Virus record (IMG/VR): IMGVR_UViG_2579778670_000004
Length of the DNA: 44,004 nucleotides
DNA from: a virus
Taxonomy: Duplodnaviria > Heunggongvirae > Uroviricota > Caudoviricetes
Reading direction: 5' to 3' (one strand)
Below are positions 22,383-35,835 of the stretch, in pieces; within the stretch, counting starts at the first letter, position 1; every line of letters starts with the position of its first letter. Under the pieces are notes generated by a model. It made no database searches. It was not told where the DNA came from and worked only from the letters and a program-made list of their open reading frames with translations. Position numbers and translations under genes: made by a program.

Positions 22383-22975
22383 GATGTGTAATCCAGCAGC
22401 TGCGCGGCGGCATTTTCAGCGGCCTCCTGAGAGGCAAATGTGCGGAACAAAATATAATTCCACAGCACATCTAAAACGGCTGAATACAGTTGACCGAACT
22501 CAAGATCGTCCATCGCTGCAAACGAGATTGAACGAGGTACGCGCATCAAACTGCCGTCTGGCATCTGATGAACGTCATAAAACCCAGCTTCCATAATCGC
22601 CCATGCGCGAAACGCCTCGAACGACTTCACCGCACTGATACTCCCCGCGCGCTTTTCCGACTCATCGAGAAGATACTGATCAGCCAGCTCTGCCATGACA
22701 TCACCGTGTCCACCGTAATACGCCAGTAACTTAACGTAGCCGTGAACCAGTTCGCGCTCCGCAGGAGAAATAGCCCCTCCGGACGGATGCCAGTAATCAA
22801 AGCCCAGGTTGAGAAGTGAGAAAAATTTACGATGAAACGCGGGATTACGCGCCTGTTTGAAATCTGCATACACAACAGCACCTGGTTTGACTCGTTCAGT
22901 CAACCAGCGTTGCGTGTCTGGTGTCGCGGGTATTAGCGAACCGCCGGATACCCTGATAAATGAATGCTGCGCCAT
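22379..22975 (-). CDS. Conserved lambdoid nin-region protein (possibly DUF1367 family)
   Basis: 198-aa ORF coupled by a 4-bp overlap to the YbcO-like gene. Confidence 0.35.
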   Translation of the reverse strand: MAQHSFIRVSGGSLIPATPDTQRWLTERVKPGAVVYADFKQARNPAFHRKFFSLLNLGFDYWHPSGGAISPAERELVHGYVKLLAYYGGHGDVMAELADQYLLDESEKRAGSISAVKSFEAFRAWAIMEAGFYDVHQMPDGSLMRVPRSISFAAMDDLEFGQLYSAVLDVLWNYILFRTFASQEAAENAAAQLLDYTS

Positions 22976-23052
22976 GGTTAACTCCAGGTGGCGCGGCAGT
23001 GTTCAGAAAATGATGCCGGGTGTTCAATCCAGCACCGATATTATACCGTGTT

Positions 23053-23232
23053 TTACGCGTCAGGGGGTGTAATAGTATATCCAGCTATTTCTGCCAACTC
23101 GAGAAACGCCATCAGGCTGGCAATCCGCTCATCATCGGTCAGAACACGCACACCAACGATGTGTCCGTCCTTACGCTTGATAACAGCCCGGCATGTTTCC
23201 GGTAGTTCGCCTATAGATTCTTGAATATTCAT
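23053..23232 (-). CDS. Small protein downstream of a LexA box (putative SOS-inducible factor)
   Basis: Track ORF 23053..23253 begins at TTG; the in-frame ATG at 23230..23232 is the more likely start (59 aa). A consensus LexA box lies about 25 bp upstream. Confidence 0.35.
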   Translation of the reverse strand: MNIQESIGELPETCRAVIKRKDGHIVGVRVLTDDERIASLMAFLELAEIAGYTITPPDA

Positions 23233-23254: not shown

Positions 23255-23270
23255 CTGTATATTTATACAG
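23255..23270. promoter_or_regulatory. LexA (SOS) box CTGTATATTTATACAG
   Basis: Perfect CTGT-N8-ACAG with AT-rich spacer, palindromic, in the promoter region of the 23053..23232 gene. Confidence 0.6.
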
Positions 23271-23383
23271 TATTTTATGGCATTTGTCATAACGCCAAAT
23301 ACAATGAGGGAATAATGAACAATTATATTCACGTCGTGAATTTTATTAAACGGTTTTATAGGGGATTAAACCGTTTATGGTCA

Positions 23384-24025
23384 TTATTTATCACTCCTGT
23401 AAATTGGAATTAACCATTTTCTAATCGTCGACGCTGCAGGTGGGTCAGAGTATTTCGCCACAAAAATACCGGATATGTATTGCACGCCACGCGATAATGG
23501 CGCTGTCGGGTTTTCAGTAAAAAAACGATCAGCCAGTTCAATGGCTTCGCTTTTTAATCTGTGCTGTGGTCGTCCTCCGCCCTTTGTTCCCAGGTATCGC
23601 GCCAGTTGTTTGAAACGGTAGGCGATGATTAACGGTCGCATCATCATATTGAAAAAATCGCGGGCATCGTTGTCAGCGCCTTGCGCTATCAACAGTGCAA
23701 AAAACAGATACGGGATTATGTACACTTCAGGAGATATACGAACCCGTTCACAAGTTGGTGGAGCCAACTCAATAAGTAAGTCAGCCAGCGGATTCCCCTT
23801 TTCTCCACGTTTGTAATAGCGATACAGCGGCCCGATATCAAGTTCACTCACGTCGATTTCAGGATGCCCGGCAACGACTGTACGTATCTCTTCTGCCAGA
23901 GCGTCAAATATTGCCCCGGTCCGTTCAAGATAGAGCCTCCGGGTCGAACCGCGATCATCCAACGCCCGTAACATATCTAACCGGCTAACGAAAGTTTCAG
24001 GCCAGTCCTCATAGAAGGTTTTCAT
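23384..24025 (-). CDS. Hypothetical cargo protein (unknown function)
   Basis: Start placed at the Met with GAGGT Shine-Dalgarno (MKTFYEDW...), 213 aa; no recognisable motif. Followed on its strand by a 9-bp inverted repeat AAACGGTTT/AAACCGTTT at about 23,342..23,370. Confidence 0.45.
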   Translation of the reverse strand: MKTFYEDWPETFVSRLDMLRALDDRGSTRRLYLERTGAIFDALAEEIRTVVAGHPEIDVSELDIGPLYRYYKRGEKGNPLADLLIELAPPTCERVRISPEVYIIPYLFFALLIAQGADNDARDFFNMMMRPLIIAYRFKQLARYLGTKGGGRPQHRLKSEAIELADRFFTENPTAPLSRGVQYISGIFVAKYSDPPAASTIRKWLIPIYRSDK

Positions 24026-24268
24026 AATTACCTCGAATAATAAAAACTGCACTATTTGCACAATTTATTATTCGTTTTCACGCCGCTGAGTTCTATAAAA
24101 AAGAAAAAACCTCCGAGGCAGGGTTTTGTTATGGCTCGTTAAATCATCATCCAACTTTTTAGACTGAACGGTGATACTTGCAAATATTTGAAAATATGGG
24201 CTGGAACCCTATCTTATGATGTGCCTGGTAATTTATATTGTTGGGTCTTTATATCATGAGGAATCACT

Positions 24269-24502
24269 ATGGGTACGTTAGGCAACCAGCCGTGCAGAAG
24301 TCGTTATGAGTTCGATGATTTTAATTTAGCCAATCGAGCTGCGGCTCTTACTAAGTTAGCAAAAGAAACTGGTGTATCGGTGGATACCTTAATCAAACTT
24401 GAAATTGCTATGCAACTGAATCGGCTCAACTCCATCCTTATCGAAAACGGTGACAAGATGGACGAGAATCTGGCAGGTATTGGCGAGATACTGCAGAAGT
24501 GA
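24269..24502 (+). CDS. Small protein, possible degenerate HTH regulator
   Basis: 77-aa ORF with GAGGA Shine-Dalgarno; segment LAKETGVSVDTLIKLE resembles an XRE-type helix-turn-helix; followed by hairpin CCCCTC-TTCT-GAGGGG. Confidence 0.4.
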   Translation: MGTLGNQPCRSRYEFDDFNLANRAAALTKLAKETGVSVDTLIKLEIAMQLNRLNSILIENGDKMDENLAGIGEILQK

Positions 24503-24900: not shown

Positions 24901-25389
24901 ATGGCTACCAACCCAAGAGAGCACGCCCGGCGAGTGCTGGACACGTTCTGGTGCGGGCGTGGTTTCCCTGTTGATCCAGCGAAAATTGCTCACGACATGG
25001 GATTAGATGTTTTTATTACCGATCTTCCTGGGAAAGTTTCTGGCGCACTGATTAAACAAAAAGATCAAGATCCAGCGATCTTTCTAAACAGTGATGACAA
25101 CAAAGTTCGTCAACGTTTTTCATGTGGGCATGAGTTGGGGCATTACATCGCCCGGCAAGCATCGCATAGCGATGAATATGAGTACGTTGATTTACGTGGC
25201 GAAACCGCAAGCGCCGGAACGCATCCTGATGAAATTTTTGCAAACAAGTTCGCAGCAGAACTTCTGATGCCGGTAGATGAGGTCAGAAAACTGCACGCTG
25301 ACGGTCAACCAAGTTATATAATGGCGCATTATTTTGGCGTATCTGACGATGCGATGACTTATCGTTTAAAGAACTTGAGGTTGGGGTAA
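24901..25389 (+). CDS. ImmA/IrrE-family zinc metallopeptidase (HExxH)
   Basis: 162-aa ORF with HELGHY motif and overall ImmA/IrrE (COG2856-type) pattern; GGAGGA Shine-Dalgarno. Confidence 0.7.
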   Translation: MATNPREHARRVLDTFWCGRGFPVDPAKIAHDMGLDVFITDLPGKVSGALIKQKDQDPAIFLNSDDNKVRQRFSCGHELGHYIARQASHSDEYEYVDLRGETASAGTHPDEIFANKFAAELLMPVDEVRKLHADGQPSYIMAHYFGVSDDAMTYRLKNLRLG

Positions 25390-25398
25390 CGCTTTAAA

Positions 25399-26004
25399 AT
25401 GCCATCGGATGACGATTTTAACAGCCGTTTCAAACAGGAAGTAGCACGCAGACTGAAGGATTCCCTCAACCTACACCGTCAGTTAGCAGAAGAGGTTGAG
25501 CCGGAGGACGATGAAACTCCGGTTCAGTCTCCTGACGAAGCTTCACCTCAGCCAAAGGTTTCGCACGCCCCCAAAAAAACGGCTGTCCGTATTCGCGGAA
25601 TAGCCAGAAAAAGAGCTGCCGAAGCTCGCAAAATGGCTGTAGCTGCGTCTAGCAAAAGAATTCCAACTGCTACACCCTCTCAACAAGTCACCCGTACTGA
25701 GAGTAAAATCTTGACCGAGTTCACATCTGTGAAACAGGTGAATTCACTTGATACCGAGCATGAGCGCAAACAACTCAACAACAAAGATTTTGAAGCAGAA
25801 ATCGCTCTAAAAAAACGATACGGGAAATGGTTCCTGATTATCCTTGCTTTCCAACTTCTGATAATGAATGGTGTATTTATTGCCGACGGCGCAGGTAAGC
25901 TGGAATTTGAGGATTTAACACTACAGTTGTACATGGGCGGTACTTTGACAGAGGTATTCGGCCTCGTGCTGGTCGTGACAAAATACCTTTTTAAACGCAA
26001 GTAA
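25399..26004 (+). CDS. Membrane protein with charged N-terminal region and two C-terminal transmembrane helices
   Basis: 201-aa ORF 9 bp after the peptidase stop; about 140 aa Lys/Arg/Glu-rich, then FLIILAFQLLIMNGVFIA and TLTEVFGLVLVVTKYLF helices. Confidence 0.55.
   Translation: MPSDDDFNSRFKQEVARRLKDSLNLHRQLAEEVEPEDDETPVQSPDEASPQPKVSHAPKKTAVRIRGIARKRAAEARKMAVAASSKRIPTATPSQQVTRTESKILTEFTSVKQVNSLDTEHERKQLNNKDFEAEIALKKRYGKWFLIILAFQLLIMNGVFIADGAGKLEFEDLTLQLYMGGTLTEVFGLVLVVTKYLFKRK
25933..26004 (+). repeat. Direct repeat copy 1 (3' end of membrane-protein gene)
   Basis: About 72 bp, roughly 90 percent identical to 29354..29425. Confidence 0.7.
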
Positions 26005-26466: not shown

Positions 26467-27165
26467 TTATATTTTTCCATATTTTTTTCCGTCAAATCGA
26501 ATCATGCCAGGATCAAGAAAATTAATTAAATCGATTAACGCGTGCTGTATTCTGATTAGCCTTTCTTTATAAATTCCGATATCTCTTGTCATATTTATCA
26601 CTTCATTGTTTAAATCTAAAAAAAATGGCTCATTGATAAAGCAATTTTCCTTTGTGAAACTGCCGTAACCTATGCAATCAAATCCAGTATCTGTTGATAT
26701 CAGCATCTTTTCTGCAATAGCTCTCTGCTCTCCTATGAAAAACATAAAATACTGACCAAAGACGTCTGTTTGGATTAATGAGTTAATATTGTTCTGTAAT
26801 CTAATAAACTCCCTCATTTTTTTATTTTTTTCTAGGCTAAGGTATTGAATGTCTATGCGGGCAGCTTCTGTCCATGCAAAAAACTGGGAAAAAAGAAAAA
26901 CAGTATTGTTGATAACATAATCTTGTTGGCGCTTATTCCCATTATGATAAAACTCTTCAATGAACCCCAATTCTAATATATTATAAATACGGCTTTGTAA
27001 GTCTGAAGCTGAGCGAATTAACGGTTCAATATAGTACTGATGTTTTCTCCTTACATCCAGTGATTCATTGAGCTTGTTTATTCTATTCTGATTATAAGTA
27101 GATATAGCAATAGAGATTATAGCTATTGCACCACTAATAAAGCTTGAAATTAATGCCGTACCCAT
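26467..27165 (-). CDS. Hypothetical protein with N-terminal transmembrane anchor (unknown function, AT-rich cargo)
   Basis: 232-aa ORF; N-terminal hydrophobic helix (ALISSFISGAIAIISIAIS); low-GC codon usage unlike the phage backbone. Confidence 0.5.
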   Translation of the reverse strand: MGTALISSFISGAIAIISIAISTYNQNRINKLNESLDVRRKHQYYIEPLIRSASDLQSRIYNILELGFIEEFYHNGNKRQQDYVINNTVFLFSQFFAWTEAARIDIQYLSLEKNKKMREFIRLQNNINSLIQTDVFGQYFMFFIGEQRAIAEKMLISTDTGFDCIGYGSFTKENCFINEPFFLDLNNEVINMTRDIGIYKERLIRIQHALIDLINFLDPGMIRFDGKKYGKI

Positions 27166-29276: not shown

Positions 29277-29353
29277 CTGAAGTCTCCTTCAAGCTGGCGC
29301 CAGGTGTTAACCTGGTGCCAGCTTAGTCATCAAGTGCATATGTAACTGTTTTA

Positions 29354-29425
29354 TATGGGCGGTACTTTGACAGAGGTATTCGGTCTCGTGCTGGTCGTGG
29401 TCAAATACCTTTTTAAGCGCAAATA
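29354..29425 (+). repeat. Direct repeat copy 2 (displaced duplicate of the membrane-protein gene 3' end)
   Basis: Core ATGGGCGGTACTTTGACAGAGGTATTCGG is identical to copy 1 and would encode the same C-terminal peptide (MGGTLTEVFGLVLVV..KYLFKRK). Confidence 0.7.
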
Positions 29426-34557: not shown

Positions 34558-35034
34558 TCATGCATGGTGGTCTTGCGCAGTGCGTATCACTGCTCCTCGC
34601 GTCGCTACCAGCGCCGCTATTGCTTCGTCAATTTCCTGAATAGTTAACTCTGGCGCGAAGTGGAGATGTACAGCGTTAATCGCTTCCACCCCTTCTTTTG
34701 CCGCCAGCGTTGCCAGCAAAACGGGATCGCCCGGCGACTCCAGACGTGCCCGCCGTTCTGCGGGTAGCACGGCTTTCATCACACTGGCCAGCACCTGAGT
34801 TTTTCGGCGCGCCGCCGTTGTCTCGCCACGTAACCAGCGAAAGATTTTCTGCCGATTGTTGTTGATGGCTCTCCAGTCCACGTTGCCGTCCGCGTCCTCA
34901 AATTCATGTAGTCTCAACTCATCATTGCGTCCCTGACTGAACCAGGCCCGGCAGATTTCAATCGTGACGAGTTCCTGCCCTGCCCTTGCCGCCCAGGTCA
35001 AAATCTCTTTTTGTAATTCCTCTTGGTTTTCCAT
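34558..35034 (-). CDS. Early regulatory-region protein (YdaT/CII-position protein, function uncertain)
   Basis: 158-aa ORF directly downstream of the Cro-like gene, arranged as in Rac-type prophages. Confidence 0.35.
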   Translation of the reverse strand: MENQEELQKEILTWAARAGQELVTIEICRAWFSQGRNDELRLHEFEDADGNVDWRAINNNRQKIFRWLRGETTAARRKTQVLASVMKAVLPAERRARLESPGDPVLLATLAAKEGVEAINAVHLHFAPELTIQEIDEAIAALVATRGAVIRTAQDHHA

Positions 35035-35092: not shown

Positions 35093-35323
35093 TTAAGCTG
35101 CTTCCGTTTTAGGCAAGCTGTCATCTGGGTTTGGGTAAAGATCCGGTCTAAGATCATGAGGGGTCACGCGCCATTCAAGAGCTTCAGATGTGCGCAAAAC
35201 CTCTTCACCGGGAACCCGTCCTTTGAACCAGAGGCTTACCGTTTGTGGTTTTTTCCCTAATCGCCGCCCTAACTCGGATTGACTCATTACGGAAAGAATT
35301 TTGTCTTGCAGTTGTTTATCCAT
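35093..35323 (-). CDS. Cro-like HTH regulator (YdaS-like)
   Basis: Start set at the ATG with AAGGAG Shine-Dalgarno (MDKQLQDKILSVMSQSELGRRLG...), 76 aa; divergent from the repressor gene. Confidence 0.5.
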   Translation of the reverse strand: MDKQLQDKILSVMSQSELGRRLGKKPQTVSLWFKGRVPGEEVLRTSEALEWRVTPHDLRPDLYPNPDDSLPKTEAA

Positions 35324-35348
35324 ATGGACTCCTTGTGTCCGCGTCATC

Positions 35349-35387
35349 ATTACAAACAATAACTGTAATTACAAATTATATTTGCAA
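35349..35387. promoter_or_regulatory. Operator region between divergent cro-like and repressor genes
   Basis: Inverted repeats ATTACA-N9-TGTAAT (35349..35369) and TTACAAAT-TAT-ATTTGCAA (35369..35387). Confidence 0.45.
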
Positions 35388-35406: not shown

Positions 35407-35835
35407 TTGTATCCTTACGGTATGAACACAAAAACGAAAAACATGGCTTTTGCTAGCCGACTACAACGGATTCTAAAAGACTTAGGCTGGTCTCAATCTG
35501 AGTTAGCTCGCCATATTGGGGTTACGGCTCAATCAGTTCAGGCATGGTGTAATGGGGTAACTCCAAGAAAAGATAAATTAGACAAGCTAGCAAAAGTGAC
35601 CGGATACCCTGTTCATTTTTTCTTCATGAATGAAGGGGAATATTTGGATGAATCCACACTACACCCGGGTAATTACAATCAAGAACTAACCCCGCAAGAA
35701 CAGGCTCTACTGCAACTATTCAGAGGACTGCCTGAGAGCGAAAAAAATAAATTAATCAATGAGCTAAAAGAAAAAAGAGAGCACTTCGATCTACTGCTAA
35801 AAGAACTACTTGAAGCCAAAAACCAGACAAAATAG
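35407..35835 (+). CDS. CI-like prophage repressor (XRE-family HTH, no S24 peptidase domain)
   Basis: 142-aa ORF; N-terminal HTH (LGWSQSELARHIGVTAQSVQAW); C-terminal short coiled-coil segment only. Confidence 0.6.
   Translation: MYPYGMNTKTKNMAFASRLQRILKDLGWSQSELARHIGVTAQSVQAWCNGVTPRKDKLDKLAKVTGYPVHFFFMNEGEYLDESTLHPGNYNQELTPQEQALLQLFRGLPESEKNKLINELKEKREHFDLLLKELLEAKNQTK

Follow-up and report, generated by a model that had tools for sequence, protein, structure and literature searches.

A two-domain protein family beside the induction switches of lambdoid prophages and PICI-type satellites: a possible sensor-coupled regulator

Among the described systems closest to the locus considered here, the Gifsy prophages have, between their replication and Q regions, a small antirepressor gene together with a terminator-like palindrome and a LexA box (PMC3121763), and the Rem protein of the Qin prophage has been shown experimentally to be an antirepressor of DicA (PMC10448788). 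For phage-inducible chromosomal islands (PICIs), immune systems are reported to be located at the 5' (int-proximal) or the 3' end (PMC11364771). In this work we consider a 213-amino-acid protein, hereafter X, encoded on the minus strand of a 44,004-nucleotide stretch of DNA from a virus of the Caudoviricetes (IMG/VR record IMGVR_UViG_2579778670_000004; "the window" denotes this whole stretch), together with its homologues in PICI-type satellites, hereafter X'. The family is uncharacterised, small and narrowly distributed, and its members stand in front of a LexA-controlled antirepressor gene in lambdoid prophages and in front of alpA in the satellites. With a probability of roughly 0.4, we propose that X is a sensor-coupled DNA-binding regulator placed beside the induction switch of its element.

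Position beside two kinds of induction switch

The gene that follows X in the window belongs to the Rem family, and a hairpin and a perfect LexA (SOS) box, the sole one in the 44 kb, lie between the two (Table 1). This arrangement is not peculiar to one phage. A LexA box stands 110-121 nt past the stop codon of X in 9/9 lambdoid loci tested, and the gene directly downstream encodes a protein of 54-77 amino acids in all lambdoid loci examined, most of these proteins matching Pfam Rem (PF27490); the loci come from Escherichia coli, E. whittamii, Salmonella, Klebsiella oxytoca and K. pneumoniae, and include homologues of about 30% identity (P0075 and P0088). This gene is succeeded by NinB/NinG, DUF1367/YbcO or DUF968/RusA, and then by Q, and the order of X, hairpin, LexA box and antirepressor persists across different replication, immunity and nin modules. 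The Rem-family gene of the window is predicted to encode an SOS-controlled antirepressor and to be the first gene of a rem-DUF1367-YbcO-Q unit. Since a perfect LexA box precedes it, the prophage is probably induced in the Gifsy manner, by way of a LexA-controlled antirepressor, which probably acts on a small non-cleavable repressor in place of repressor self-cleavage; the 9-bp inverted repeat of the window is the counterpart of the Gifsy terminator-like palindrome.

The original prediction, which was made on this DNA from its letters, had described X itself and passed over the adjoining LexA box and Rem-type antirepressor gene. Its statement that X runs opposite to the adjacent phage operon proved wrong, as the minus strand carries, along with X, the Rem-like gene, DUF1367, YbcO/DUF1364, Q, the holins, the endolysin, the terminase and all structural genes. 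Only the three cargo genes upstream of X, which are on the plus strand, are divergent from it.

Across E. coli, Salmonella and Klebsiella the intergenic stretch from X to rem shows higher conservation than both the X and the rem coding sequence, and the identities of X and Rem co-vary across alleles. An allele-specific partnership of the two proteins is ruled out by a pair of loci (L034 and L036) in which X and the intergenic region up to the LexA box are identical, and the antirepressors and the immunity regions are different; because the antirepressors differ, X is linked to the promoter region and not to one Rem or one repressor. On its other side, the genes directly upstream vary between near-identical E. 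coli prophages while X remains constant beside rem. The sets found there include ImmA with a transmembrane (TM) protein and the 77-amino-acid protein, a 255-amino-acid protein with a possibly HEPN-like partner, and others, and at further loci the upstream genes include HOT/theta, an orphan methyltransferase and ORF6N.

The satellites have the layout int-alpA-Bro/AntA-(Ash)-primase, and in 8/8 distinct loci X' is found between int and alpA, with a terminator after it. The order int-X'-terminator-alpA extends over at least five genera; the loci with int-X'-hairpin-alpA (L014, L015, in which int was uncalled, L016-18 and L039-44) have Yersinia, Dickeya, Morganella, Scandinavium and other Enterobacterales as named or inferred hosts. 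X' and alpA are transcribed in the same direction. In the loci of Yersinia and Morganella the called start of X' overlaps the int stop codon; translational coupling of the two is uncertain, since the true start may lie at an internal Met. X' is also much less conserved than its flanks: between L014 and L016 the identities are 79% for int, 64% for AlpA and 32% for X', and between L039 and L043 they are 67%, 73% and 39%. This rapid divergence, together with a C-terminal domain that is the better conserved part throughout the family, is a pattern seen in specificity determinants such as satellite master repressors. X' occupies the int-proximal region of the PICI, and the positions of X and X' are fixed while other cargo varies.

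The inverted repeat after X had been claimed with arms of 9 bp, and these were found as described: AAACGGTTT (23348-23356) and AAACCGTTT (23368-23376), starting 8 nt past the stop codon. The repeat in fact extends to 13-nt arms with 92% complementarity, and the pattern AAACNGTTT, which makes up each arm, is present in five copies in the window vs 1.1 expected. A hairpin lies 3' of the X stop codon in 13/13 distinct homologous loci read, and in L003, L005 and L029 the central bases of the repeat do not pair. Given the self-palindromic arms and the unpaired centres, the post-X repeats may be tandem protein-binding sites besides, or instead of, a terminator; in distant loci, ordinary GC-rich terminators take the same place. 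The hairpin after X may accordingly be read as a terminator-like insulator, or possibly as a pair of protein-binding sites. Downstream of X', elements of Dickeya and Yersinia (L042 and L039) have near-identical pairs of AAACCGGTTT.

On the 5' side, most loci have an inverted repeat between a -10-like AATAAT and the Shine-Dalgarno sequence, the arms of which vary in sequence between subfamilies, and the copy in the window is a candidate operator or 5'-untranslated-region hairpin. Farther upstream the window has a weak terminator-like hairpin, and clear intrinsic terminators are found at that position in Klebsiella and Salmonella loci (L003, L010 and L034). As the upstream neighbour is divergent in the window, X needs a promoter of its own within 24026-24268, the 243-bp region that separates it from the gene for the 77-amino-acid protein. 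The best manual candidate, TAGAAC-17-AATAAT, scores 8/12.

The gene, its family and its predicted structure

X is a real gene under purifying selection. The claimed 213-codon gene was recovered as an ATG-initiated open reading frame (ORF), identical to that of the RefSeq hypothetical protein WP_000847617.1, and the ratio of nonsynonymous to synonymous substitution rates (dN/dS) against seven homologues is 0.10-0.30. The Shine-Dalgarno sequence GAGGT is likewise where it was said to be, four bases before the ATG (24023-24025). An alternative in-frame start, GTG at 24061, would give 225 amino acids; the homologue alignments begin at the ATG.

The sole family match of X is phrog_5215 (E=1.1e-150, residues 1-213 of a 213-position profile), a family without functional annotation that is matched by 42/42 aligned relatives as well. 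Pfam offered no family for X at E<=1, and NCBIfam likewise none; PADLOC (PADLOC-DB v2) gave no match, and sequence searches of the PDB with X, by single sequence and by profile, gave no genuine match. Over the 42 members these searches returned scattered single Pfam and NCBIfam matches at E 0.002-0.06 and, from PADLOC, one chance-level match to DpdC (E=0.005). The original judgement that no family could be assigned is in agreement with these results, and no housekeeping or structural homologue, which would have spoken against it, turned up. The accompanying statement that X has no recognisable motif must be withdrawn, however, for the family has a sharply conserved C-terminal signature, G..GGRPxHxxKxEAL...P.A...L..KY.D.PS..TI..WL, which corresponds to an arm and then three helices.

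An AlphaFold model of X (m8c7dce44f449), built with the 42-sequence alignment, is all-helical, with ten helices, a mean predicted local distance difference test score (pLDDT) of 90.4 and a predicted template modelling score (pTM) of 0.68. It separates into an acidic N-terminal bundle and a basic C-terminal domain (Table 1), the latter with helices at 158-171, 177-191 and 198-212. The two have evolved at different rates: the mean pairwise identity is 34% for the C-terminal vs 18.7% for the N-terminal domain, and the C-terminal domain is the more conserved in 95% of pairs. Conserved positions of the N-terminal domain include the near-invariant C92 (38/42 members), D23, S98 and P131. A search for structural analogues found none for full-length X or for its N-terminal domain. 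The weak fold matches of the model are to helix-turn-helix (HTH) or winged-helix domains, and we infer that they belong to the C-terminal three-helix module, which on the strength of the model would be an HTH-like nucleic-acid-binding module, a term meant structurally and not as a family assignment.

The hydrophobic central segment to which attention had been drawn, VYIIPYLFFALLIAQGA, is present at residues 101-117, but it is not a notable feature of the family. With the Kyte-Doolittle 19-residue maximum (KD19) and a transmembrane threshold of 1.6, X reaches 1.61, vs a family median of 1.40, and 10/42 members reach 1.6. In the model the segment is a helix (99-114) internal to the compact bundle, with a pLDDT of about 98, and in many homologues the corresponding segment holds E, K, H and D. 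The grand average of hydropathy (GRAVY) of X is -0.25, and its N-terminus is not signal peptide-like. The confidently buried helix, the sub-threshold family median and the charged homologues lead us to reject a transmembrane reading; as modelled, the helix is a core helix of a soluble bundle, not a membrane anchor. No catalytic motif was recognised in X, and we propose from the model that the protein is all-alpha and cytoplasmic, and acts through binding, not catalysis.

A word-indexed search of 5.8 billion proteins yielded 14 relatives, and when 1.84 billion cluster representatives were searched exhaustively by profile, no more than 55 clusters fell in the family. Every named source is a member of the Enterobacterales: Escherichia, Salmonella, Klebsiella, Citrobacter, Scandinavium, Yersinia, Serratia, Dickeya, Morganella and Rahnella. 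The family occurs in 1 of 50,697 phage records and in one GTDB species representative, and in no record of the plasmid collection searched; alignment-based scans of the GTDB representatives found none of the satellite subfamily, and a literature search found no paper mentioning WP_000847617. The homologue in E. whittamii (L031, 6001-6638) is matched in two parts (6001-6120 and 6117-6638), a sign of a probable frameshift, and several truncated variants are found in the databases (P0003, P0010, P0012 and P0013). On both counts, X decays in some lineages.

Many complete E. coli genomes, among them several with the label ST131, contain a prophage that is 100% identical to the window region; of 5426 complete E. 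coli genomes, 449 (about 8%) have the prophage with X. In E. coli SK1144 the prophage is situated beside the tRNA-Leu/Cys/Gly-pgsA-uvrC locus, and the induced phage vB_EcoM-705R4 is a further match to the window. The head and early region of the prophage are lambda-like and its tail module is contractile (sheath-and-tube), and X has a low-GC cargo island on one side and the nin/Q region on the other.

Proposed role and competing explanations

In the role that we favour, X would be made from its own small transcription unit, closed by the hairpin, and this unit would stand before the trigger of induction, which is the LexA-controlled rem where the element is a lambdoid prophage and alpA where it is a PICI-type satellite. 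The conserved basic C-terminal module (the GGRP arm and three-helix HTH-like fold) would bind nucleic acid, most likely DNA, at or near the promoter of X, the promoter of the neighbouring switch, or both, so that X would serve as an accessory transcriptional gatekeeper. The acidic, fast-evolving N-terminal bundle would be the recognition or sensor module, and the protein or ligand that it recognises would alter the activity of X. The reality of the gene, the conservation pattern, the synteny, the LexA box and the flanking hairpins are observed, and the domain architecture is predicted; that X binds DNA, what it targets, in which direction it regulates and whether the lysogen expresses it are all matters that we infer. 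If X is a regulator, it would add a further layer of control to SOS-dependent, antirepressor-mediated prophage induction in about 8% of complete E. coli genomes, and its satellite homologues would be a concrete candidate for silencing alpA and sensing the helper in enterobacterial PICIs.

A number of observations weigh against this proposal. Scanning for promoters gave none of consensus grade for X, and a k-mer survey of phage and satellite intergenic regions found no common operator, the LexA box alone emerging, and in phages only. Profile searches of the PDB with the X family returned designed helical repeats only, and so no link to an HTH family; in Pfam, one of the 42 members matched HTH_32 and one HTH_16, each at E about 0.02. 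The "GRP arm and three helices" is an arrangement that resembles Hin, resolvase and Tc1-type domains, but direct profile-profile comparison did not support homology: against Hin/Gin/resolvase HTH sequences the C-terminal domain received an hhalign probability of 0.4%, so that membership of the resolvase/Hin-type HTH at the sequence level was rejected, for which reason "HTH-like" is to be taken in its structural sense only. The satellite loci were selected because they contain X', and core-gene status cannot be derived from them. Rem loci without X exist, such as that of Qin, which has relBE-hokD in the slot and no LexA box, and X is therefore dispensable for Rem control. Finally, the phages that carry X already have LexA and a CI-type repressor.

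The main competing explanation, which we consider somewhat unlikely, holds X to be lysogeny-expressed "moron" cargo, active in anti-phage defence or superinfection exclusion; the N-terminal domain would recognise a protein of the invader, and the C-terminal domain would act on DNA, for example by blocking the replication, transcription or packaging of the invader. A hypervariable N-terminal domain suits a sensor in an arms race, and the rare and patchy occurrence of X (the single phage record, the single GTDB species representative and no plasmid) is what one might look for in such cargo. X is also a self-contained, hairpin-flanked unit, and it stands at the edge of a low-GC cargo island with ImmA/CapP-like, TM and DRT-like genes, although the GC content of the X gene itself (about 0.47-0.49) is near that of the phage backbone and not that of the island (0.31-0.34). 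Comparable positions elsewhere point in the same direction: in Qin the slot upstream of rem holds a toxin-antitoxin cassette, the int-proximal ends of PICIs are reported to hold immune systems (PMC11364771), and in one viral contig (L030) the upstream neighbours of X are a 255-amino-acid protein and a 132-amino-acid protein with an R-x6-H motif, read as possibly HEPN-like. Of the features of a moron, the 3' hairpin is present in every locus and upstream terminators in several, while the promoter candidate reaches 8/12 only. Against this explanation, no enzymatic or membrane effector is recognisable in X, and the PADLOC search over the 42 members gave its one chance-level match and nothing more. 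Furthermore, X is fixed beside rem or alpA while the cargo varies, the reverse of what is usual for mobile defence cargo, and unrelated phage backbones have it at this position even where identity has fallen to about 30%. As a defence gene, X would represent a new system of one gene, in which the effector binds DNA and which phages have in common with their satellites.

A bolder form of the regulatory proposal, and one that we regard as distinctly unlikely, is that the family supplies the lysogeny-side regulator of PICI-type satellites in Gram-negative bacteria, as a functional analogue of Stl. The satellite protein, encoded with int, would hold the alpA operon off and would be released when its hypervariable N-terminal domain binds a helper-phage protein, and the phage copies, that of the window included, would be either a second, phage-specific lock on the SOS-controlled rem or a repressor mimic by which temperate phages silence parasitic satellites. 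Such an arrangement, if true, would be an undescribed layer of regulatory cross-talk between phage and satellite, built on one common protein family.

It is improbable, in turn, that X is an early accessory protein of the lytic cycle, produced by read-through from the early-right operon for host takeover or counter-defence. In all lambdoid loci X is oriented like the genes of the early-right, nin and Q regions, its position is of the ren/nin type, between replication genes and ninB or DUF1367, and at some loci the neighbours are counter-defence-like (an orphan N6-methyltransferase, Acb2/Tad1, Tad2 and an AcrIF11-like gene). Read-through is at odds, however, with the intrinsic terminators upstream of X in the Klebsiella and Salmonella loci and with the placement of the upstream genes on the other strand in the window; the hairpin that follows X in every locus, and the location of the satellite homologues with int, outside the induced alpA operon, also argue against it. 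That X is a membrane protein, exclusion or holin-like and anchored by residues 101-117, is very improbable, as its hydropathy maximum just reaches the threshold, while the family median, the charged homologous segments, the internal position of the helix in the bundle, the overall hydropathy and the N-terminus all speak for a soluble protein.

Taken as a whole, X is most economically viewed as a new family in the known class of mobile-element DNA-binding regulators or conflict proteins, and no categorically new mechanism has been shown for it. What is new for the family is the signature motif, a confident model and a strict genomic address common to temperate phages and satellites.

Neighbouring features and known systems

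Table 1. Coordinates of X, its domains and signals, and neighbouring genes in the window
Feature	Position	Strand	Basis or remark
X, coding sequence (WP_000847617.1, phrog_5215)	23384..24025	-	ORF and translation; RefSeq annotation; dN/dS 0.10-0.30; phrog_5215 E=1e-150
N-terminal domain of X, residues 1-145	23591..24025	-	Predicted acidic seven-helix bundle, isoelectric point (pI) 5.25, fast-evolving; AlphaFold model, family identity, pI/hydropathy
C-terminal domain of X, residues 146-213	23387..23590	-	Basic, pI 9.99, GGGRPQHRLKSEA arm and three helices; predicted nucleic-acid-binding, HTH-like
Shine-Dalgarno sequence GAGGT of X	24030..24034	-	Direct reading of the sequence
Hairpin after X	23347..23377	-	Each arm a self-palindromic AAACNGTTT, two copies 20 bp apart; fold z = -4.2, better than all 200 shuffles
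Inverted repeat CGAATAATAAA-N19-TTTATTATTCG	24034..24074	-	Between -10-like AATAAT and Shine-Dalgarno sequence; RNA fold -15.1 kcal/mol, z = -3.2
Weak terminator-like hairpin AAAACC-N10-GGTTTT and T-run	24090..24127	-	Upstream of X; window fold not significant, z = 0.44
LexA (SOS) box TACTGTATAAATATACAG	23255..23272	-	Perfect box, 23-40 nt upstream of the Rem-family gene
Rem-family protein, 59 amino acids (listed as 66-amino-acid ORF from TTG 23253)	23053..23232	-	phrog_340; PF27490 Rem on syntenic homologues
77-amino-acid gene	24269..24502	+	phrog_5550; weak MerR-type HTH hint; divergent from X
ImmA (ImmA/IrrE metalloprotease)	24901-25389	+	Cargo; Pfam Peptidase_M78 8e-18, PADLOC CapP 2e-25
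201-amino-acid TM protein	25399-26004	+	Cargo; hydrophobic C-terminal region; phrog_5346
232-amino-acid TM protein	26467-27165	-	N-terminal hydrophobic segment; weak PADLOC match RTasTM (DRT-associated TM), E=1.8e-5
YdaT-family gene	34558-35034	-	
Cro-like gene	35093-35359	-	
Repressor candidate, 142-amino-acid HTH protein	35407-35835	+	Candidate

The cargo island upstream of X contains genes for an ORF6N protein, an LprI-family protein, the 232- and 201-amino-acid TM proteins, the ImmA/IrrE protease and the 77-amino-acid HTH-like protein. The last of these accompanies both E. coli alleles of X and is missing from several loci; its gene lies about 400 bp upstream of ImmA, which the 201-amino-acid gene directly follows, and this group could be a protease-controlled cargo or defence module. 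The 26-28.5 kb portion of the island, in which the 232-amino-acid protein is encoded, is strongly AT-rich (GC 0.31-0.34) and seems to be of other origin than the phage backbone. Between the LprI and ORF6N genes, at about 29353-29424 (L001 26154-26225), 24 residues of the 201-amino-acid TM protein recur with 96% identity, and similar 28-residue fragments are present in the related loci L006, L028 and L029; the repeated fragment has the look of a scar left by recombination or of a module boundary that is repeated. In L030, the region upstream of the X allele (996-2158) encodes the 255- and 132-amino-acid proteins, the latter with GRSYYGVFH as its R-x6-H and a HEPN-like look, and the two could be a toxin-antitoxin or defence pair. 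On the other side of X, annotated CRISPR arrays of other E. coli genomes (NZ_CP020106, NZ_CP028744 and NZ_CP166879) contain 33-34-nt stretches 100% identical to about 22834-22867 and 22976-23008, in the DUF1367 gene and just upstream of that gene; these stretches are probably spacers acquired against this phage lineage.

When X and X' are set beside the systems with which they might be grouped, the likeness is one of logic. Stl, of the Staphylococcus aureus pathogenicity islands (SaPIs) and other PICIs of Gram-positive bacteria, is a DNA-binding protein encoded next to int, outside the induced operon and adjoining its promoter, and X', a predicted DNA-binding protein, has the same location. 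A conserved DNA-binding module joined to a highly divergent partner-recognition module is a further likeness, predicted in the case of X', as is a divergence faster than that of the flanking core genes, which is seen in X'. On the other hand, Stl has an N-terminal HTH and is divergent from the lytic operon, whereas X' has a C-terminal HTH-like module and is co-directional with alpA, with a terminator between; Stl has no sequence or fold match to X, and X is found in complete phages too. Of the marks of an Stl-type regulator, then, the location next to int and outside the induced operon is found in X', and divergent transcription and an N-terminal HTH are not.

The immI region of P22, in which Mnt and Arc repress ant, likewise has a small, separately transcribed DNA-binding protein beside an antirepressor gene, and X would be a putative phage-encoded lock of this sort. 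Mnt and Arc are ribbon-helix-helix proteins of about 53-83 amino acids, however, whereas X is all-alpha with 213, and their genes are divergent from or operonic with ant, whereas a hairpin and a LexA box intervene between X and its putative target rem. The dinI-gfoA/gftA-irsA loci of Gifsy resemble the neighbourhood of X in their succession of palindrome, LexA box and small antirepressor gene (PMC3121763); neither that paper nor the one on Qin (PMC10448788) mentions an X-like gene upstream, and X may be seen as an add-on to this module. From Hin and the resolvases, Tc1/mariner, IS630 and the Pax paired domain, X differs in its longer linker between helices 2 and 3 (KYxDxPS), in the conserved His and Lys after the arm (GGRPxHxxK) and in having no catalytic domain; with the Hin/resolvase type it has no profile similarity (hhalign 0.4%; HTH_32 in one member, E=0.02). 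By analogy, then, X appears to resemble Stl or Mnt in its logic, and stands apart from both classes by orientation, fold and size.

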